A DNA stretch of 64,000 bases from Candidatus Tanganyikabacteria bacterium (GCA_016867265.1 VGJW01000010.1:35525-99524), one strand, 5' to 3'; positions 4,952 through 15,565 are shown, counted from the first letter of the stretch. Program-made: numbers and translations. Notes: generated by a model not told the origin, from the letters alone.

Positions 4952-5419
4952 TCAGAGGCCGACGCGGATGATCGCCGAAGCGCCCCAGGCCCTGCCGGTG
5001 GCGCCACCAAGCAGGTTGTTCATTTCCTGGTCAGGAAGGCCCCAGACGGAGCCTTCGAGGTCGAGCAGGTCCAAGAGAGCGAAGCGACCTCCGGCCACGA
5101 GGCCGTAGGCCCCGGGCATGTTCCGGACGGGCGCCGGTCCCACGGGGAACCATTGCTGCGCCATGACGCCGGCCATCGTCGTGATGGGGCCGAGCGGTAC
5201 CTCGAGCACCAGGTCACCCCTGGCACCCACCGAATGCCACGCTTCGGTGCCCGTCAGGGCATTCCAGCGTGCATAGCCGCCCTGCAACTTCAGCGCAAGC
5301 GGGCCCACGGGCCCACCCAACCAGATGATGGGCACCTGCACCGAACGTGCCTGCACGGGTTCGTCGGCCACGCGGGTCTCGATGACCTGCCCACCCACGG
5401 GAAGCGTGTAGAGGCTCAT
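4952..5419 (-). CDS. hypothetical protein (155 aa), translationally coupled to REC-PilZ gene
   Basis: Internal Met of track ORF 4952..5494 gives ATGA overlap with the stop of the upstream minus-strand gene; Gly/Trp-rich, no recognisable domain. Confidence 0.4.
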   Translation of the reverse strand: MSLYTLPVGGQVIETRVADEPVQARSVQVPIIWLGGPVGPLALKLQGGYARWNALTGTEAWHSVGARGDLVLEVPLGPITTMAGVMAQQWFPVGPAPVRNMPGAYGLVAGGRFALLDLLDLEGSVWGLPDQEMNNLLGGATGRAWGASAIIRVGL

Positions 5420-6408
5420 CGGGTCTGGGGCACCGTGGGGTTGGCGAGTTTGATGTCCGTGCGGAACAGGTGAATGGTCAGCAGCACCATCCACAGGGGG
5501 CTGATGTCCTCGGGCAGGTCGATATCGGCCTCGATGGGTGCTCCGGCGACTTTGTGTATGCGCCGCACCTTGCCCACCACGGGGTCCAGACTGGGAGGGT
5601 TGCGTATTTCCATCGTGATTTCGTCGCCGATGCCCAGTCCATCGTGGACCCCGACCAGCCGAAGGCCGAGAGCCGACAAGTGACCGAGTGTGGCCAGCCG
5701 GTAGAACTGGCCGGGTACCCTGTAGCGCAGCGGCAGGTCCGAGGCGCGCCGGAAGCGCTGCTGGCGCTGGCTTCTGTGGGGGGGGCTAAGCAGGCGCACG
5801 GAGAGCAACTCGGGGTCTTCGCCCTCGGGCAACAGCACGATGCGCCGCCTTGTCGCCATGCCGTCGCGGTCCTCGTACTGCAGTTCGCCCTCCGTACCGG
5901 AGCCGTGGGCCAAGCCTGCCTGCTCGCCCCATGCGGGACGCTGGATGAACAGGACCTCATCGGCCTGACCGCGCGAGACCGTGTTGTAGGTGCGACTCTG
6001 GTCGTCCAGTTGCAGCGTCATGGGCGTGTCGAGCGGATGATGGTCCCCGGCAACCCGATTCAGCCGCTGCAGCAAGGTCTTGCCGTCCAGCGGCTTGGGC
6101 AGTAACTCGGAGGCACCGGACTCGATCGTGGCCTGCAGGACCTCGGCCGTGGTCTTCGAGGACATCATCACCACGGGCATCTGGCTGGTGAAGGGGTTGC
6201 AGCGGATGGCCATCGCCAGCAGCGGGCCGGGCAGGCCGCCTAGCTCGTAGTCGATGAGGGCCATCGAGGGCTGCTGCTTGATCGCGGCCGAGATGGCCTC
6301 GACGCCGTCCCCGACGGACACGCAGTCGTAACCCTCACCGGCCAGCATCGCGACGAGATTCCTGCGGTGCTGGGTGGAAGGGTCGGCAAGAAGAAGGAGG
6401 CGTCCCAA
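5416..6408 (-). CDS. response-regulator receiver domain fused to PilZ-like domain
   Basis: N-terminal REC (LLLLADPS...ALIDYEL phospho-Asp...VVMMSS...LPKP); C-terminal RxxxR-containing stretch (QRQQRFRRASD ... HLSALGLRL) consistent with c-di-GMP-binding PilZ. Confidence 0.7.
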   Translation of the reverse strand: MGRLLLLADPSTQHRRNLVAMLAGEGYDCVSVGDGVEAISAAIKQQPSMALIDYELGGLPGPLLAMAIRCNPFTSQMPVVMMSSKTTAEVLQATIESGASELLPKPLDGKTLLQRLNRVAGDHHPLDTPMTLQLDDQSRTYNTVSRGQADEVLFIQRPAWGEQAGLAHGSGTEGELQYEDRDGMATRRRIVLLPEGEDPELLSVRLLSPPHRSQRQQRFRRASDLPLRYRVPGQFYRLATLGHLSALGLRLVGVHDGLGIGDEITMEIRNPPSLDPVVGKVRRIHKVAGAPIEADIDLPEDISPLWMVLLTIHLFRTDIKLANPTVPQTR

Positions 6409-6512
6409 GGCAACCCCATATACCCCGAGGGCCCCGCAAAGCTAACCTCCACGCCTGACAGGGCCTCCGAGGGCGTAGAATGGGACGGTGCCGACGACAC
6501 GAGGAGGTGGCG

Positions 6513-8222
6513 ATGGCGACGCTGGACAAGCTGGACGAGACGGGCCTGGAGCGGTTACTGGCCGGGGAAGAGGGGCATCTCCTGCGCGCGCCGCGCGGTG
6601 CGACGCGGCTCTGCCGGGGCTGGGTCCAGGAGGCGGCCCTGCGGATGCTGCTGAACAACCTTGATCCTGAGGTGGCGGAACATCCGGAGCGTCTGGTGGT
6701 CTATGGCGGCACGGGCAAGGCGGCCCGGGGCTGGCCGGAGTTGCGGGCCATGGTGCGCACCCTGCTGACGCTCGCGGACGACGAGACGATGCTGGTGCAG
6801 TCGGGTCGGCCGGTCGGGGTTTTCCGGACGCATGCCGATGCGCCCCGGGTGCTCATCGCCAACAGCAACCTCGTCGGCAAGTGGGCCCATTGGGCGCATT
6901 TCCGAGACCTCGAGGACCGCGGCCTGATGATGTACGGCCAGATGACGGCCGGAAGCTGGATCTACATCGGGACGCAGGGGATTCTGCAGGGCACGTGGGA
7001 GACCTTTCGGGCGCTGGCCCGCAAGCATTTCGGCGGCACGCTCGCCGGCCGCTGGGTGCTGACGGCCGGCCTTGGCGGTATGGGTGGCGCCCAGCCCCTG
7101 GCCGTCACGATGAATGACGGCGTGGCCCTGGTGGTCGAGGTCGACGAGACGCGCATCCGGCGCCGCCTCGAGACACGCTACGTGATGGAGATGGCGACGG
7201 ACCTCGAGGACGCCGTGCAGCGGGTGCGGGCTGCGGTGGCCGAGCGTCGCCCCTTGTCCGTGGGGCTGCTGGGCAACATCGCCGAGGTCGCCCCCGAGCT
7301 GGTCCGGCGGGGCTGGATCCCCGACGTCGTGACCGACCAGACCTCGGCCCACGACCCGTTCTGCGGTTACTTGCCACCCGGAACCGATCCCCGCTCGGCC
7401 AAGGATCTGGCTGCTACCGACCCCGAGGGCTATGCCCGGCGCGTCGGCGAGGCGGCGGCCACCCACGTGCAGGCCATCCTCGCAATGATGGAGGCGGGGG
7501 CTGTCGCCTTCGACTATGGCAACAACCTGCGCCAGCTGGCCAAGGACCACGGCGTCGCCGACGCCTTCGACTATCCCGGCTTCATTCCCGCCTATATCCG
7601 GCCGCTGTTCTGCGAGGGCAAGGGACCGTTCCGCTGGGCGGCGCTGTCCGGCGACCCGGCCGACATCGCCCGCATCGATCGCTACATCCTCGAAGAGTTC
7701 GGTGCGGACGAAGATCTGGCTCACTGGATCCGCCTTGCCCGGGACCAGGTTGCCTTCCAGGGGTTGCCGGCCCGCATCTGCTGGCTTGGCTACGGGGACC
7801 GCGCCCGACTGGGCCGGGCCATCAATGACCTCGTCGCGCGAGGCGAGGTCTCGGCCCCGGTCGTCATCGGCCGGGACCATCTGGATTGCGGCTCGGTCGC
7901 CTCGCCCAACCGCGAGACCGAGGCGATGCGGGACGGCACGGACGCCGTGGCCGACTGGGTCTACCTGAATGCCCTCGTCAACACCTCGGGCGGTGCCTCG
8001 TGGGTCTCCCTGCATCACGGGGGCGGGGTCGGCATCGGCTATTCGCTGCACGCCGGCATGGTCATCGTCGCCGACGGCACGCCCGAGGCGGACCGCCGCC
8101 TGGAGCGCGTGCTGACCAGCGACCCCGGCATGGGCGTGATCCGTCATGCCGACGCCGGCTACGACGAGGCCGTCGCCTGTGCCGACGAACGGGGTGTCCG
8201 GCTCCCCATGCGGGAAGGCTGA
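6513..8222 (+). CDS. hutU: urocanate hydratase
   Basis: ATG after GAGGAGG; ~570 aa with urocanase hallmarks throughout ([13 protein letters not shown]-binding region); track ORF starts 33 nt earlier at a weaker start. Confidence 0.9.
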
Positions 8223-9499
8223 TGGTTGCGGCCGTCGACTGGTTGCTTCGCGGGGCGCGGCTGGTCACGCCTGCGGGCGAGGTCGGCCCCCTTGCCGGCA
8301 GCCGCCAGGGTGACCTCGTCATCCACGACCGAGGTGCCGTGGCCTTGGCCGGCGGCCGGATCGTGGCCGCGGGTCCCGAGGAGGCTTTGCTGCAGGCCGT
8401 GGGAACCGGACCGGGTACCCGCGAGGTCGACCTGGAAGGCCGGCTGCTGACGCCGGGCCTGGTCGACGCCCACACTCACCCCGTCTATGGGGCCATGCGC
8501 CTCGATGATTTCGAGCGTCGCGCGCGTGGCGCGACCTATGCCGAAATTCTCGCGGCGGGCGGCGGTATCCACGAGACCGTGCGGCGCACCCGTGAGGCGA
8601 TGGTGGCCGAGTTGGCGACAGGGCTCGAGGCACGGCTGGATCGATTTCTTGCCTGCGGCACGACCACGATCGAGGCCAAGAGCGGCTATGGCCTTGATAC
8701 GGCTGCCGAGCTGGCCCAGCTCAAAGCCATCGCCGCAGCCCGGCATCCGGTGGCACGGGTCCCCACTTGGCTGGGTGCCCACGCGGTGCCGCCCGGACGA
8801 GACCCCGATGAGGTCATCGACCAGCTCATCGGCGAAAGCCTGCCTGCGGTCGTCGCCCAAGGCATCGCCCGCTTCGCCGACATCTTCTGCGAGCATGGAG
8901 TCTACACGACTGGACAGGCCGAGCGCCTGCTTCTGGCGGCCCGCGCGCACGGTCTGGGCCTCAAGCTTCATGCGGACGAGCTGGTCGATACGGGCGGGGC
9001 GGCTCTTGCGGCCCGTCTCGGTGCCCTGAGCGCCGACCACCTGCATGTGGCCAACCCTAAGGGTTTGGCGGCCATGGCCGCAGCGGGCACCTTGGCCGTG
9101 CTCTTGCCGGGAACAAGCATGTTTCTCGGCATGCGTGAGCCGGCACCGGCCCGCGCGATGATCGAGGCGGGCGTGCCCGTCGCCGTGGCGACGGACCACA
9201 ATCCCGGTTCCTGTCCGGCTGTTTCCCTGCCCCTGATGATGACCCTGGCCGTGACGCAGTTGCGCCTGACGCCGGCCGAGGCTTTCGTGGCCACGACGGC
9301 CAACGGGGCTGCCGCCGTGGGCATGGGCGACCGCATCGGGCGCATCCGCCCGGGCATGCGGGCCGACGTCGTGGCGTGGGACCTGCACGATTGGCGCGAA
9401 CTTGCCTACCACGTGGGTTCGGTCCGTGTTGCGGGCGTATGGGTTGCCGGGCGTGGCGTGCGCGGCGCTCTGGCGCATGCGTCACAGGATGCGGGTTAG
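8222..9499 (+). CDS. hutI: imidazolonepropionase
   Basis: Internal ATG giving ATGA overlap with hutU stop; [19 protein letters not shown]...GLVDAHTHPVYG metal-dependent amidohydrolase; the 537-aa track ORF upstream part overlaps hutU. Confidence 0.9.
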   Translation: MVAAVDWLLRGARLVTPAGEVGPLAGSRQGDLVIHDRGAVALAGGRIVAAGPEEALLQAVGTGPGTREVDLEGRLLTPGLVDAHTHPVYGAMRLDDFERRARGATYAEILAAGGGIHETVRRTREAMVAELATGLEARLDRFLACGTTTIEAKSGYGLDTAAELAQLKAIAAARHPVARVPTWLGAHAVPPGRDPDEVIDQLIGESLPAVVAQGIARFADIFCEHGVYTTGQAERLLLAARAHGLGLKLHADELVDTGGAALAARLGALSADHLHVANPKGLAAMAAAGTLAVLLPGTSMFLGMREPAPARAMIEAGVPVAVATDHNPGSCPAVSLPLMMTLAVTQLRLTPAEAFVATTANGAAAVGMGDRIGRIRPGMRADVVAWDLHDWRELAYHVGSVRVAGVWVAGRGVRGALAHASQDAG

Positions 9500-9519
9500 G
9501 CAGGGGTTAGACTGCGGAC

Positions 9520-11142
9520 ATGGCCAAGCTCATCGAATGCGTACCCAACATCAGCGAGGGTCGTGACCCCGTCCGGATTGAGGCCGCGCGCGCCGCGCTG
9601 GCCCGGGACCCCCGCATCACGGTGCTCGACGTCAAGCCTGACGAGAACCACCACCGGACGGTGCTGACCTTCGCGGGTCCGGCCGAGGCGATGGAAGATG
9701 CCGTGCTCAGGCTTTTCGGGGAAGTCATGGCCTGGATCGACCTGCGCCAGCATCAGGGCGAGCATCCCCGGATGGGTGCCGTGGACGTCGTCCCCTTCGT
9801 GCCGCTGGGAGAGGCCACCATGGCCGATTGCACCGCATTGGCCGAGTCCGTGGCGCGGGTCGTGGCGGCGCGCTTCCAGGTGCCGGTCTACCTGTACGCC
9901 GAGGCCGCGCGCCGCCCCGAGCGCAAGGTGCTCGCCAACATCCGCAAGGGCGAGTTCGAGGGCCTCGCGGCCAAGATGGCCGACCCGGCGTGGGCGCCAG
10001 ACTTCGGCCCCGCGGCGCCCCATCCGACGGCGGGGGCGGTGGCCGTCGGCGCCCGTCCCTTCCTGATTGCCTACAACCTGCAACTCAACACCCGCGACGT
10101 GAAGGTCGCCCAGGAGATTGCCAAGGCCGTCCGAGCCTCGGGCGGCGGCCTGGCCAACGTCCAGGCGATGGGCGTTCACCTGGCCGACCGCGACGTGGCG
10201 CAGGTCTCGATGAACCTGCTGGATTACCGCAGGACGCCCATCCGCCGTGTCCAGGAGCTGGTCAAGGCCGAGGCGGCACGCTTCGGGGCGAGCGTGACGG
10301 ATGCCGAGATTGTCGGCCTCGTCCCCGAGGACGCCCTGCTCGGGGCGGCTGCTGATTACTTGCAGTTGCCGGGATCCTGCGCCGAACTCATCCTTGAGCG
10401 GCGCCTCGAGGGAGGGGCGCAGGCGGAACCCGAGGTCGGGGGCTACCAGCCCGAGCGCATCGGGGAGCTTCGGCTCGCCCGGTTCCTGGCCGACATGGTC
10501 TCTCGCCAGGCCGTCCCGGGTGGCGGCTGTGCCGCGGCCTTTGCCGGTGCCATGGGTGCCTCCCTTGTTGGCATGGTCGGGGCCCTGACCGAGGGTCGCA
10601 AGGGTTTCGAGAGCGTGGCCGTGACGGCCGAGAACCTGCGGGAGCAGGGCGGGGAGCTATCGGAGGCCCTGCTCAATGCCGTGGCCGATGACGCTGGCGC
10701 CTTCGAGAAGGTGATGGAGGGATTCCGGCTGCCCAAGGCCACGGATGAGGAGCGGGCGGCACGCACGGCCGCGCTCGAGGAGGCCAACCGGGGCGCGACC
10801 GAGGTTCCCCTGCAAGCTGCCCGCGAGGCTTTGGCTGCAGCCGAGTTGGCCTTGTCGGCGCTCGAGCACGGGGTGCCCCAGGCGGCATCCGATGCCGGCT
10901 GCGGGGCCTTGCTGGCCTTGGCGGGTGTCGAGGGTGCCCTGCTGAACGTCGCGATCAACCTGGGTGGCCTGGCGGACGCGGCCTGGGCGGCCGAGCGGCG
11001 CGAGGAAGCCGTGGCGATGCTGGTCCGTGCCGCTCGGCTGCGTGAGGACCTCTGGAGCTTGCTGCGGGCGCGCGTCCCGGTCATCGACGCGATGGCAGAG
11101 GAAGCCGCCGCGGCCCATCTTGCCGAGGGGGCTATTTCGTGA
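9520..11142 (+). CDS. ftcD: bifunctional glutamate formimidoyltransferase / formimidoyl-THF cyclodeaminase
   Basis: N-terminus MAKLIECVPNISEGRD is the formiminotransferase signature; C-terminal half (GGGCAAAFAGAMGASLVGMV) matches cyclodeaminase; 540 aa like the eukaryotic fused FTCD. Confidence 0.85.
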   Translation: MAKLIECVPNISEGRDPVRIEAARAALARDPRITVLDVKPDENHHRTVLTFAGPAEAMEDAVLRLFGEVMAWIDLRQHQGEHPRMGAVDVVPFVPLGEATMADCTALAESVARVVAARFQVPVYLYAEAARRPERKVLANIRKGEFEGLAAKMADPAWAPDFGPAAPHPTAGAVAVGARPFLIAYNLQLNTRDVKVAQEIAKAVRASGGGLANVQAMGVHLADRDVAQVSMNLLDYRRTPIRRVQELVKAEAARFGASVTDAEIVGLVPEDALLGAAADYLQLPGSCAELILERRLEGGAQAEPEVGGYQPERIGELRLARFLADMVSRQAVPGGGCAAAFAGAMGASLVGMVGALTEGRKGFESVAVTAENLREQGGELSEALLNAVADDAGAFEKVMEGFRLPKATDEERAARTAALEEANRGATEVPLQAAREALAAAELALSALEHGVPQAASDAGCGALLALAGVEGALLNVAINLGGLADAAWAAERREEAVAMLVRAARLREDLWSLLRARVPVIDAMAEEAAAAHLAEGAIS

Positions 11143-12680
11143 CGGGCGCAGGGCCGCTTGGCGTTCGGGGCCATGGCCTGACGCTGAGCGAGGTCCGGGA
11201 GGTCGCCCGCGAGGGTCGGCGCGCCGTGCTCGACGACGGCGCCCGCAGCCGGATGCAGCTGTCGCGCGACCGGATTGAGGCCGTGGTCCGGGGTGGTGAG
11301 GTCGTCTATGGCGTCAACACCGGATTCGGGGCCCTCAAGGACCGTCGCATCCCGGACGGCAGCCTGGCCCAGTTGCAGCAGAACCTGTTGCGCAGCCATG
11401 CGGCCGGCGTGGGCGAGCCGTTCCCGCCCGATGTGGTGCGGGCGATGCTGTTGTTGCGCGCCAATGCCCTGGCGGTGGGTGCGTCGGGCATCCGCCCGCT
11501 GGTCGTGGATCGCCTCCTCGAGATGCTGGCCCGGGACCTGTTGCCCGAGGTGCCCTGCCAGGGCTCCGTCGGGGCCTCGGGCGATCTGGCTCCGCTCGCA
11601 CATCTGGCCTTGCCACTCACGGGAGAGGGCTGGGTCCTGCACCGGGGCGTTCGCCGTCCCGCCACCGAGGCGCTTGCTGCCGAGGCGCTCGAGCCGCTCG
11701 TGCTCGAGGCCAAGGAGGGGCTCGCCCTGATCAACGGCACGCAGGCCATGACGGCTGTCGGTGTCCTCGCCGCCGAGGACGCGCTCGCGCTCTTCCGGCT
11801 CGCGGACGTGGTCGCGGCCCTTTCCGTCGATGCCTTGCTCGGATCGCGGCAGCCCTTCGATCCCGAGTTCCATGCCCTGCGACCCCATGCCGGCCAGGCG
11901 GCCAGCGCCGCCAACCTGTGGCGCCTGCTCGACGGTAGCCCGATCATTGCCTCGCACCTCGATTGCGACCGGGTGCAGGACCCTTACTCGTTGCGCTGCA
12001 CGCCCCAGGTCCACGGGGCCAGCCGCGATGCCCTGGACCATGTTCGCCGTGTGCTCGAGGTCGAAATCAACTCCGCGACGGACAACCCGCTGATCCTCCC
12101 GGGATCGGGGCAGGTCCTTACCGGCGGGCACTTCCACGGTCAACCCGTTGCCCTCGTCATGGATTTCCTCAAGGTCGCGGCCTGCGAGGTCGCCAACCTG
12201 TCGAGCTGCAGGCTCGAGCGCCTCGTCAACCCACACTACTCACAGGGCTTGCCGGCTTTCCTGACGCCGGACGGCGGCCTGCATTCGGGTTACATGATTG
12301 CCCAGTACACGGCGGCGGCCCTCGTCAGCGAGAACAAGGTCCTCGCTCATCCGGCCAGCGTGGATTCGATCCCGACGGGTGCCGGCCAAGAGGACCACGT
12401 AAGCATGGGCACGATCGCGGCACGCCAGGCGGCCCAAATCGTCGGGAACCTGACGCATGTGTTGGCCCTTGAATTGCTCTGTGCCATCCAGGCCCTTGGC
12501 TTCCGGGCCCCGCTCGTGCCGGGCGCTGCCGCGTTGGCGCTCGTTGCCGAGGTCCGGTGCAAGGTGCCCCCCCTTGCCGAGGACAGGCATGTGGGCGATG
12601 ACGTCGCGTCCCTGGTGCGCCTCGTGCGCGGGGGGCGTCTCCTCGCAGTTGCCGAAGAAGTCGTGGGGGCCCTCGCGTGA
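11139..12680 (+). CDS. hutH: histidine ammonia-lyase
   Basis: GTGA overlap with ftcD; MIO-forming GASGDLAPLAHLAL motif; 513 aa. Confidence 0.9.
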   Translation: MTGAGPLGVRGHGLTLSEVREVAREGRRAVLDDGARSRMQLSRDRIEAVVRGGEVVYGVNTGFGALKDRRIPDGSLAQLQQNLLRSHAAGVGEPFPPDVVRAMLLLRANALAVGASGIRPLVVDRLLEMLARDLLPEVPCQGSVGASGDLAPLAHLALPLTGEGWVLHRGVRRPATEALAAEALEPLVLEAKEGLALINGTQAMTAVGVLAAEDALALFRLADVVAALSVDALLGSRQPFDPEFHALRPHAGQAASAANLWRLLDGSPIIASHLDCDRVQDPYSLRCTPQVHGASRDALDHVRRVLEVEINSATDNPLILPGSGQVLTGGHFHGQPVALVMDFLKVAACEVANLSSCRLERLVNPHYSQGLPAFLTPDGGLHSGYMIAQYTAAALVSENKVLAHPASVDSIPTGAGQEDHVSMGTIAARQAAQIVGNLTHVLALELLCAIQALGFRAPLVPGAAALALVAEVRCKVPPLAEDRHVGDDVASLVRLVRGGRLLAVAEEVVGALA

Positions 12681-13372
12681 ACGCCTTTCTCGCCCGCGTC
12701 CGGGGCAAGCTCATCATTTCCTGCCAGGCTCAGCCAGGCGAACCGCTGCACGGCAGCAGCCACATGGCCGCCATGGCCCGCGCTGCCGCCGAGGCGGGCG
12801 CGGGTGCCATCCGTGCCGAAAGCCCGGCGGACATCGCCGCGATTCGTGCGGCCGTCGACCTGCCGATCCTCGGGCTGTACAAGAAGAAGGTCTTCGAGGG
12901 CAACTGGTGCCGCATCACGCCGACGTTCGAGACGGCCCGCGAGGTCGTGGCCGCCGGTGCCGATGCCATCGCGACCGAGGCTACGGGGGCTCCGCGCCCG
13001 GATGGTCAGGCGCTGACGCAATTCCTGACGCTGTGCATGCTCGAGCTGGAACGTCCGGTCATCGCCGATGTCTCGACGGTCGAGGAGGGCCTGATGGCCG
13101 CTGAGCAGGGTGCCGTGGCCGTGGCGACGACCATGGCCGGTTACACGCTGCAGAGCGGGGGCCCGCGGACGACGCCGGACTTCGACCTGCTCGAGGCGCT
13201 CGTGGCGCGCTGCCCGGTGCCCGTGATCCTCGAAGGCCATGTCTGGGAGCCGGCGCAGGTGACGGAGGGTTTTCGCCGGGGCGCCCATGCCGTGGTGGTG
13301 GGCTCGGCCATCACCCGCCCCCAGCTGATTGCACGACGCTTCGTCGACGCCGTGCCCCCGCGGGAGGCCTGA
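12677..13372 (+). CDS. nanE: putative N-acetylmannosamine-6-phosphate 2-epimerase (NanE family)
   Basis: GTGA overlap with hutH; KLIISCQAQPGEPLHGSSHMAAMARAA matches NanE family N-terminus; 231 aa. Confidence 0.65.
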   Translation: MNAFLARVRGKLIISCQAQPGEPLHGSSHMAAMARAAAEAGAGAIRAESPADIAAIRAAVDLPILGLYKKKVFEGNWCRITPTFETAREVVAAGADAIATEATGAPRPDGQALTQFLTLCMLELERPVIADVSTVEEGLMAAEQGAVAVATTMAGYTLQSGGPRTTPDFDLLEALVARCPVPVILEGHVWEPAQVTEGFRRGAHAVVVGSAITRPQLIARRFVDAVPPREA

Positions 13373-13374
13373 AG

Positions 13375-14304
13375 ATGCCTGCGGCTGGCTGGACTATCGG
13401 CCTGGATGTCGGGGGCACCAAGGTGCTCGGGGGCCTCGTCGCCGAGGATGGTCGCGTGGCTGCCACGGCGCGTCGCGACACGCCGGTTGGCGAGGGAGCG
13501 GCCGGCATCCTTGCCACGATGGCGGCCGTTGCACGGGATCTCGTCCAGGGTGCCGTCGGGCCCGTGGTGGGCGTGGGCGTCTCGACCGCCGGCCATGTCG
13601 AGGCTGCGACAGGTACGGTCGTCGACGGCACGCCCAATCTGCCTGGCTGGGCGGGGACACCCGTCGCGGCCTGGCTTTCGGATGAACTTGGCCTGCCGGT
13701 ATGCGCAGACAATGACGCCAATGCCGCGGCGTGGGCCGAGGCATGGTGCGGGGCCGGCAAGGGCTTGCGGACGGTCGTGGCCGTCACGCTAGGGACCGGT
13801 TTCGGCGGGGGCGTCGTGGATGCCGGCCATGTGCTGCGCGGCGCGCGCGGGGGCGGGGCCGAGCTGGGTCACATGATCTTGGTGCCGGATGGCCGGCCGT
13901 GCAATTGCGGTCGCTCGGGCTGCGTCGAGGCCTATCTTTCGGGCACGGCGCTCGGGCGCGAGGCCGAGAGGCTCTGGGGCGCCGGTGCGGATGCCCATGT
14001 GCTCTTCGCACGGGCCGAGTCCGGCGATCGGCTGGCGCGTGAGGTGCTCGAGGTCTTCTCGGCTCACCTCGCGACCGTGATGGTCAGCCTGACGAGCCTG
14101 TTCGACCCCGAGGTGATCCTGATCGGCGGTGGCCTGTCGCGGCGTGCAGAGGCCTACTTGCCACGGATGAAGGCCCGGATGGACCTGATTCTGGCGGGGC
14201 GACGCTGGTCGTCGGACATGGTGAGGCTGGCGGCATTGGGCGAATCGGCCGGGTTCATCGGGGCGGCGGGGCAGGCGTGGCAGCAGTCCGGCATCCTTCG
14301 CTGA
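13375..14304 (+). CDS. ROK-family sugar kinase (glucokinase/ManNAc kinase-like), no HTH
   Basis: IGLDVGGTKVLGGLV ATP-binding start, CNCGRSGCVEAYLSG zinc motif of ROK family; no N-terminal DNA-binding domain. Confidence 0.75.
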   Translation: MPAAGWTIGLDVGGTKVLGGLVAEDGRVAATARRDTPVGEGAAGILATMAAVARDLVQGAVGPVVGVGVSTAGHVEAATGTVVDGTPNLPGWAGTPVAAWLSDELGLPVCADNDANAAAWAEAWCGAGKGLRTVVAVTLGTGFGGGVVDAGHVLRGARGGGAELGHMILVPDGRPCNCGRSGCVEAYLSGTALGREAERLWGAGADAHVLFARAESGDRLAREVLEVFSAHLATVMVSLTSLFDPEVILIGGGLSRRAEAYLPRMKARMDLILAGRRWSSDMVRLAALGESAGFIGAAGQAWQQSGILR

Positions 14305-15458
14305 TCCTGGCGGCCGCGCTGGCCATCGCGGCGCCCGTCCTCGCGACGCTGCCCCAGCCTGTCGCCATGGCTGCGCCCATGACCCTGGGCGAGCCCGCGT
14401 GGGATCCGGCGGCAGGAGTCCTGTCGCTGCCTGTCGGGGGGCCTGTGGCCTGGGTGGTTCGCACGGCAGGTTCCGAAGTCGTCGTCGAGATCCTGGATGC
14501 CCGCCTGCGCCGTTCCCTCGACCGCAAGGTCGCCACGCGATTCGGGGCGGTCGGCTTGTCGCTGCGGTCCGTTTCCGGCGTCGTGCCGCGGGTGCGCCTG
14601 TCATTCCGGTGGCCTGTGGGCCTGCGGCCCGATCTGGTCGTGCAGGAAGGTCCCGGCGTGCTGATCCTGAAACCCGGCGTCCGACGGGCGGGCGAAGCCG
14701 AGCTCGAAACCCTGCCCGGCCGTGTCGGCGACGCCCGACCCCTCTTGCGGACGCCCCCCCCGCAGGTCGAGCCGACGCCCGGGCCTTCGCTACTCACCGT
14801 CGCCCAGCCCGAGATGACGCCTCCTGCCGACGGCGACGATTCGTCGCGCAAGGCCGTGCGGCGCGACAAGGCGTCCTCGTCGCGGGTCCGTCCCCGCTCG
14901 ATGGCCGTACTCTTTCTCGAGCAGGTCGAGACGCTGGACCAGCGGGCGAGGGGCCTGCACGTCGGCTATCCGCTCGGCCTGAGTCAGGCGTGGCTGGAGC
15001 ACTGGTGGACCCCGTGGCTGGGATCGAGCTTCTCGTGGCGGCAGCTGGGCTGGACGGCAAGAGGCCCGGAGGGTCTCATCCAGCGCCAGGACGATCGCAT
15101 TCAGGCCGGTGCCGGCGCGCGCTGGGTGCCCTTCGACGGCCTCGACGCGCAGGTGTGGGCGGGACTGGCCGCGCGTCAGTCCGTCGTCCTGCCCGAGCCG
15201 CCCCGGTCCTCGTTCGATCCGTCGCTTGGCGTCGTGGTCCAGGTGCTGCCGCTGGCTCCCGTGACGCTGCGCGTCCATGGGCAGGCCTATGGCCCGGCTG
15301 CGGATGGCAGCCTGCCCTACCGGGCGGGTGCCGATCTGCTGATCGACGCGGGTCCCACGGTCTGGACCTTTGGCTACGACCACGACGAGGGGCCGACACC
15401 GGGCGGGCAGCAGACCATCTTGGGCGCGCTGCGGCTTGGCGTTGGCTGGAGCTGGTAG
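14277..15458 (+). CDS. secreted AMIN-domain-like protein, C-terminal Trp/Gly-rich region ending GVGWSW
   Basis: Signal-like LILAAALAIAAPVLA; GVLSLPVGGPVAWVVRTAGSEVVVEILDARL resembles the AMIN beta-sandwich pattern; aromatic C-terminus suggests OM beta-barrel; overlaps ROK gene by 28 nt so start uncertain. Confidence 0.45.
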   Translation: MAAVRHPSLILAAALAIAAPVLATLPQPVAMAAPMTLGEPAWDPAAGVLSLPVGGPVAWVVRTAGSEVVVEILDARLRRSLDRKVATRFGAVGLSLRSVSGVVPRVRLSFRWPVGLRPDLVVQEGPGVLILKPGVRRAGEAELETLPGRVGDARPLLRTPPPQVEPTPGPSLLTVAQPEMTPPADGDDSSRKAVRRDKASSSRVRPRSMAVLFLEQVETLDQRARGLHVGYPLGLSQAWLEHWWTPWLGSSFSWRQLGWTARGPEGLIQRQDDRIQAGAGARWVPFDGLDAQVWAGLAARQSVVLPEPPRSSFDPSLGVVVQVLPLAPVTLRVHGQAYGPAADGSLPYRAGADLLIDAGPTVWTFGYDHDEGPTPGGQQTILGALRLGVGWSW

Positions 15459-15515
15459 TGTCGGGGCCCGAGAGGCTTTGACGAGGCCTCTGGGTCATGT
15501 TATGAAGAGCTGGCT

Positions 15516-15542
15516 TTGGCACTCGCGATGCCTGAGTGCTAA
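15516..15542. promoter_or_regulatory. CIRCE operator (HrcA binding site) TTGGCACTC-N9-GAGTGCTAA
   Basis: One mismatch to consensus TTAGCACTC-N9-GAGTGCTAA, exactly 9-nt spacer, immediately upstream of hrcA. Confidence 0.75.
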
Positions 15543-15565
15543 CGGGAAACCCTCAGGAAACGACC

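Follow-up and report, generated by a model that had tools for sequence, protein, structure and literature searches.

A lineage-conserved seven-gene run of Sericytochromatia joins histidine utilisation genes to a NanE/ROK pair and a predicted outer-membrane protein

Seven consecutive genes in a Candidatus Tanganyikabacteria assembly, hutU-hutI-ftcD-hutH-nanE-ROK and an ORF for a 393-aa secreted protein, probably form a single catabolic operon that is conserved across the Candidatus Sericytochromatia clade and combines the hut pathway with a NanK/NanE-type pair and an outer-membrane protein peculiar to the lineage. The run spans positions 6513-15458 of the 64,000-nt stretch of DNA that was analysed (hereafter the window), entirely on the + strand (Table 1). 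The arrangement is genuine and conserved in the lineage, yet it is made of ordinary, well-known enzyme families.

Table 1. Coordinates of the genes and candidate signals at the hut-nanE locus, counted from the first letter of the window.
Feature	Coordinates	Strand	Length	Domains, models or remarks
hutU, urocanate hydratase	6513..8222	+	569 aa	three urocanase Pfam domains; TIGR01228
hutI, imidazolonepropionase	8222..9499	+	425 aa	TIGR01224
ftcD, fused	9520..11142	+	540 aa	PF07837, PF02971, PF04961 (FTCD_N, FTCD, FTCD_C); TIGR02024
hutH, histidine ammonia-lyase	11139..12680	+	513 aa	TIGR01225
nanE, NanE-family ManNAc-6-P 2-epimerase	12677..13372	+	231 aa	PF04131; PRK01130
ROK-family sugar kinase	13375..14304	+	309 aa	PF00480; without DNA-binding domain
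Seventh gene, secreted protein	14277..15458	+	393 aa	signal peptide, AMIN-like domain, linker, barrel
Divergent response regulator	5416..6408	-		receiver domain and weak PilZ-like C-terminal domain
Candidate -10 element TAGAAT	6476..6481	+		upstream of hutU
Shine-Dalgarno GAGGAGG	6501..6507	+		5 nt before hutU ATG 6513
GC-rich hairpin, candidate terminator without U-tract	15465..15496	+		directly after the last stop codon
CIRCE operator TTGGCACTC-N9-GAGTGCTAA	15516..15542	+		pattern match, upstream of hrcA

All seven ORFs were recovered at these coordinates by sequence reading and profile searches. Their junctions, as read from the sequence, measure -1, +20, -4, -4, +2 and -28 nt in gene order. 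The first is a TGATG, where the start of hutI and the stop of hutU share 1 nt; a 20-nt gap precedes ftcD, GTGA overlaps join ftcD to hutH and hutH to nanE, a 2-nt gap separates nanE from the ROK gene, and the ROK gene overlaps the seventh gene by 28 nt if the latter starts at GTG 14277, the only canonical start that preserves its signal peptide. Four of the six junctions overlap, so that intergenic space is absent there, and hutH/nanE leaves no room for an intergenic terminator. Profile matches and junction reading thus bear out the original prediction for the identities of the genes, their close packing and their arrangement as one unit on the same strand; the ATGA/GTGA overlaps or gaps of at most 20 bp that it described hold as far as tightness goes, except that hutU/hutI is a TGATG and not an ATGA. 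A consensus scan of the operon found no internal promoter or terminator, hutH/nanE included, and an Rfam search gave no element; promoters lying within genes are nevertheless conceivable. With one strand, minimal spacing, no internal terminator detected and a conserved order, the seven genes would be co-transcribed as one unit.

We examined whether the arrangement is found in relatives. The window NanE is 99% identical to that of a Candidatus Sericytochromatia metagenome-assembled genome (MAG), and the same gene order, with equally tight hutH-nanE-ROK-last gene junctions, recurs in about ten diverged Sericytochromatia-type lineages (loci L007-L010, L071, L072/L073, the P0125 contig, L075/L076, L077 and L078; all comparison loci are metagenome assemblies), so that the hutH-nanE adjacency does extend to relatives. 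Across these lineages NanE identity drops to 60%, and that of the last protein to 24-29%. The hutH-to-nanE gap is at most 15 nt in all conserved loci but L010, where it reaches 96 nt, and the stop/start overlap at hutH/nanE is retained in the subclade of the window. Identical order and tight spacing in so many diverged lineages indicate an arrangement beyond chance. In two scans, hutH lay beside nanE in only five of 144 fetched NanE loci, those with at least 70% identity, and none of the NanE loci surveyed from other phyla has the hut-nanE-ROK arrangement. The flanks of the operon vary: upstream stands either the response regulator of Table 1 or an S8 peptidase, and downstream the last gene may be separated from hrcA by an inserted PilZ protein, methyltransferase, GH35 protein, hemerythrin or cNMP-binding metallo-beta-lactamase. 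In L072 hutI and ftcD are also separated by an insertion, and none was ever found between hutH, nanE, the ROK gene and the last gene across the compared loci. The wider neighbourhood, from the response regulator to hrcA-grpE-dnaK, is likewise syntenic in the clade, so that part of the conserved order may reflect inertia rather than selection for co-expression.

Signals at the two ends are consistent with a unit of seven genes. The TAGAAT upstream of hutU may be a -10 element: GGGCGTAGAAT is common to the window, L007, L008 and L009 at this site, and L075 carries CGTACAAT at the same position. The consensus scan upstream of hutU found no full promoter. The position of the Shine-Dalgarno sequence and the size of the homologues (569-570 aa) favour 6513 over 6480 as the hutU start. 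At the other end, the region of the hairpin (15450-15545) folds with -39.5 kcal/mol (z -2.2); the terminator scan did not call this hairpin. The CIRCE match that follows is the sole one in the window, and identical contigs carry an hrcA call of 344 aa with its start at about 15566; CIRCE opens a separate hrcA-grpE-dnaK-dnaJ unit, outside the hut-nanE operon. As had been claimed, no regulator of the HutC or HutP type adjoins the operon. Its divergent neighbour is the response regulator of Table 1 (PF00072, E 1e-14; PilZ, E 0.068, against 0.006 for the orthologue in L071). L007-L009, L071 and L072 all have this gene and L075 lacks it; it is a conserved neighbour of at most putative relevance to the operon.

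HutU, HutI and HutH all exceed curated equivalog cutoffs (934 bits against TIGR01228, cutoff 375; 410 against TIGR01224, cutoff 298; and 670 against TIGR01225, cutoff 539, respectively). HutH has the ASG of the MIO motif at residues 146-148, within GASGDL (145-150). For HutU, the thiourocanate and S-methyl-thiourocanate hydratase models both score below their cutoffs. Formiminoglutamate is assigned to FtcD (TIGR02024, 359 bits, cutoff 221) in place of HutG or HutF, as first proposed: a scan of 55 ORFs of the window revealed neither an arginase-family HutG nor a HutF. The glutamate formimidoyltransferase occupies FtcD residues 1-297 and a domain of the cyclodeaminase/cyclohydrolase family residues 319-518 (PF04961, E 2e-52). 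The latter scores 162 with the FchA cyclohydrolase model, below its cutoff of 275, and is predicted to be a cyclodeaminase.

This FtcD had been called eukaryote-like, a label that we do not retain. It does share the three-domain architecture of mammalian FTCD (rat 1TT9, pig 1QD1; 540 aa in the window against 541), and 1TT9 matches its residues 1-507 with E 2.5e-86. The fused architecture is however not special to eukaryotes, since the best 120 database homologues are mostly fused three-domain bacterial proteins, and in L075 a split transferase and cyclodeaminase occupy the ftcD slot of the operon as overlapping genes. The transferase half is 62-68% identical to stand-alone transferases of about 308 aa (the only one with a named organism being from the cyanobacterium Stenomitos), as close as to other fused Sericytochromatia proteins, and is more distant from fused Chloroflexota-type proteins (52-56%). 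The fused FtcD likely arose by fusion of overlapping neighbour genes. Clusters of the hutH-hutU-hutI-ftcD-fchA type, with glutamate formimidoyltransferase and cyclodeaminase, are known in Bacteroidota, Streptococcus and Fusobacteria. The window has the same four reactions and enzyme families, with formiminoglutamate processed via tetrahydrofolate (THF) and not by HutG or HutF; it differs by the fusion of transferase and cyclodeaminase, still split in L075, by the lack of HutC or HutP in the unit, and by the three non-hut genes.

The fifth ORF scores by far best as NanE (PF04131, E 3.7e-45, 154 bits, threshold 27; PRK01130, 236, cutoff 189), which disposes of the possibility raised earlier that it belongs to another (beta/alpha)8 family: the next best is HisA, with E 8e-4, and ThiE gave no match. 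It matches Clostridium perfringens NanE (4UTT) with E 1e-43, the catalytic Lys (K66) being aligned. In Staphylococcus aureus NanE the active site consists of Gln 11, Arg 40, Lys 63, Asp 124, Glu 180 and Arg 208, and the signature motifs are x-P-x-I-G-I-x-K and V-G-x-A-x-T-R (PMC8482478). These six residues correspond to Q17, R46, K69, D131, E186 and R214 in the window, where the motifs read LPILGLYK and VGSAITR; the six residues and both motifs are invariant in six clade members.

The ROK gene adjoins nanE in every clade locus, and on the metagenome-assembled contig L010 the two form a single 562-aa ORF. The kinase matches PF00480 over residues 7-298 (E 8e-68), with the ATP motif GLDVGGTK, the zinc motif CNCGRSGC and no HTH. 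It stays below the NanK cutoffs (NF003461, 148 against 283; NF047821, 133 against 450) and below that of its best model, ROK glucokinase (204 against 260); among solved structures, glucokinases come closest, followed by ManNAc kinases. The kinase is nearer to glucokinases than to characterised NanK. As in sialic-acid nanAKE/nanATEK clusters, a NanE with complete active site stands beside (in L010, fused to) a ROK kinase, a pairing also found in Paenibacillus and other genera. Unlike in those clusters, the pair sits behind hut genes, and nanA, nanT, nagA, nagB and a NanR/RpiR regulator were not found among the scanned ORFs. A sialic-acid transporter was equally absent from the 55 ORFs, as was an inner-membrane transporter or a regulator for either pathway; with these partner genes missing, the local set of amino-sugar genes is incomplete. 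The kinase may act on N-acetylmannosamine or on a closely related 2-acetamido sugar. Elsewhere in the window lie genes for a glycosyltransferase of the WecG/TagA/CpsF family and for an NDP-sugar dehydrogenase that is most similar to UDP-ManNAc dehydrogenases. Both hint at a cell that makes a ManNAc(A)-containing glycan, which could be a source of ManNAc.

The last protein had been described as an AMIN protein, a label which is indirectly supported and incomplete. It consists of an AMIN-like domain (residues ~35-133), a disordered Pro-rich linker (~136-202) and a 10-stranded outer-membrane beta-barrel (~205-393). Pfam AMIN (PF11741) did not match the window protein even at E 10; the assignment comes from homology to family members and from the fold of the N-terminal domain, for which structural matches show a likeness to the AMIN domains in AmiC and PilQ. 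Such domains are peptidoglycan-targeting modules, as established for AmiC and PilQ. The protein has a signal peptide, its barrel is antiparallel, and an aromatic beta-signal stands at the C-terminus; no Pfam model covers the barrel. The barrel superposes on OpcA (1.8 Å over 180 residues), with at most 14% sequence identity to any solved barrel; OpcA and OmpT/Pla are likewise 10-stranded. A barrel of this size leaves no obvious room for a solute pore. Like OmpA-type tethers, the protein joins a small outer-membrane barrel, a flexible linker and a periplasmic wall-binding domain, but the domain order is reversed compared to OmpA, and AMIN takes the place of OmpA_C or SLH in wall binding. The family is very small: 1.84 billion cluster representatives gave nine matches, of which one (P0131) is apparently spurious, and its members are always encoded directly after the ROK gene of a nanE-ROK pair.

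Our favoured reading, the single catabolic operon, would operate as follows. Transcription would start upstream of hutU and end at the hairpin after the seventh gene. HutH would convert histidine to urocanate and ammonia, HutU urocanate to imidazolone-propionate, and HutI the latter to formiminoglutamate. The transferase domain of FtcD would then yield glutamate and 5-formimino-THF, from which the cyclodeaminase domain would release the second ammonia and 5,10-methenyl-THF. The ROK kinase would phosphorylate N-acetylmannosamine or a similar 2-acetamido sugar, and NanE would epimerise the 6-phosphate to GlcNAc-6-P. The seventh protein would sit in the outer membrane by its barrel, its AMIN-like domain reaching the peptidoglycan, as an OmpA-like tether of reversed domain order. 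The last three genes may be a fixed envelope/amino-sugar sub-module riding on the hut promoter. As a reason for the linkage we prefer that histidine and N-acetyl-hexosamine, both organic compounds rich in nitrogen, are scavenged under common regulation.

A possible, though not likely, alternative is that two unrelated modules share a promoter, nanE-ROK-AMIN/barrel serving envelope maintenance next to hut genes for historical reasons. ManNAc would be salvaged from the cell's own wall-associated glycan, the outer membrane would be tethered to peptidoglycan, histidine would be unconnected, and the adjacency would be kept since breaking an operon is costly. This would account for the nanE-ROK pairs that other phyla, and a further "Cyanobacteria bacterium" MAG (L055), have apart from any hut genes, and for the specific tie of the seventh-protein family to nanE-ROK. 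The peptidoglycan targeting of AMIN domains, the two glycan genes mentioned above, the synteny of the entire neighbourhood and the 96-nt spacer before nanE in L010 also agree with it. However, over about ten lineages insertions have occurred on both flanks and at hutI/ftcD, never within hutH-nanE-ROK-last gene, and the hutH/nanE stop/start overlaps have been maintained in the window's subclade.

It is rather improbable that hut enzymes, kinase/epimerase and AMIN-barrel protein all serve one substrate stream, either cell-wall or glycoprotein debris from other microbes, where the barrel protein would be a surface receptor or a wall-anchored uptake component, or a sugar-linked imidazole handled by NanE and the ROK kinase. 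Several transcripts from a gene-dense chromosome, with incidental tight packing, are very unlikely. The genome is indeed compact (~70% G+C), and promoters of the cyanobacterial lineage often fit the sigma-70 consensus poorly; the promoter and terminator scans are uninformative here. But four junctions out of six overlap, no clear regulatory signal comes before the hairpin and CIRCE that follow the seventh gene, and the flanks vary around a conserved block. Least credible is a single pathway of all seven genes in which NanE and its partner kinase act on a histidine- or imidazole-linked substrate, such as a glycosylated or modified histidine: strictly conserved hutH-nanE-ROK junctions, a kinase fitting no NCBIfam equivalog and the absence of nanA, nagA and nagB from the scanned ORFs would suit it, but the active site and both ManNAc-6-P epimerase motifs are invariant in the clade, NanE is 48-55% identical to that of ordinary nanE-ROK loci elsewhere, the four hut enzymes complete their pathway without an extra step, and a literature search gave no link between the histidine pathway and NanE/ROK. 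A different substrate for NanE, offered initially as an option, is disfavoured by its fully canonical active site and by the NanE-ROK fusion in L010.

Sericytochromatia are an uncultured, non-photosynthetic sister lineage of the oxygenic cyanobacteria, and how they feed is little understood. Conservation of the operon throughout the class points to histidine as a significant source of carbon, nitrogen and one-carbon units, and, if co-transcription holds, a route for N-acetyl-hexosamine would be expressed together with the histidine pathway. The locus also offers a natural example of fusion and fission of FtcD between overlapping neighbour genes, along with a NanE-ROK fusion, and it brings to light a new outer-membrane protein family of few members, with AMIN and a 10-stranded barrel, which may tie the outer membrane of this lineage to its wall. 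Were the single substrate stream to be true, it would amount to a previously unrecognised nutrient-acquisition system in this lineage and to a new class of outer membrane to peptidoglycan tether specific to it. Known biochemistry is not overturned; the value of the finding lies in genome annotation and metabolic reconstruction of an under-studied lineage.

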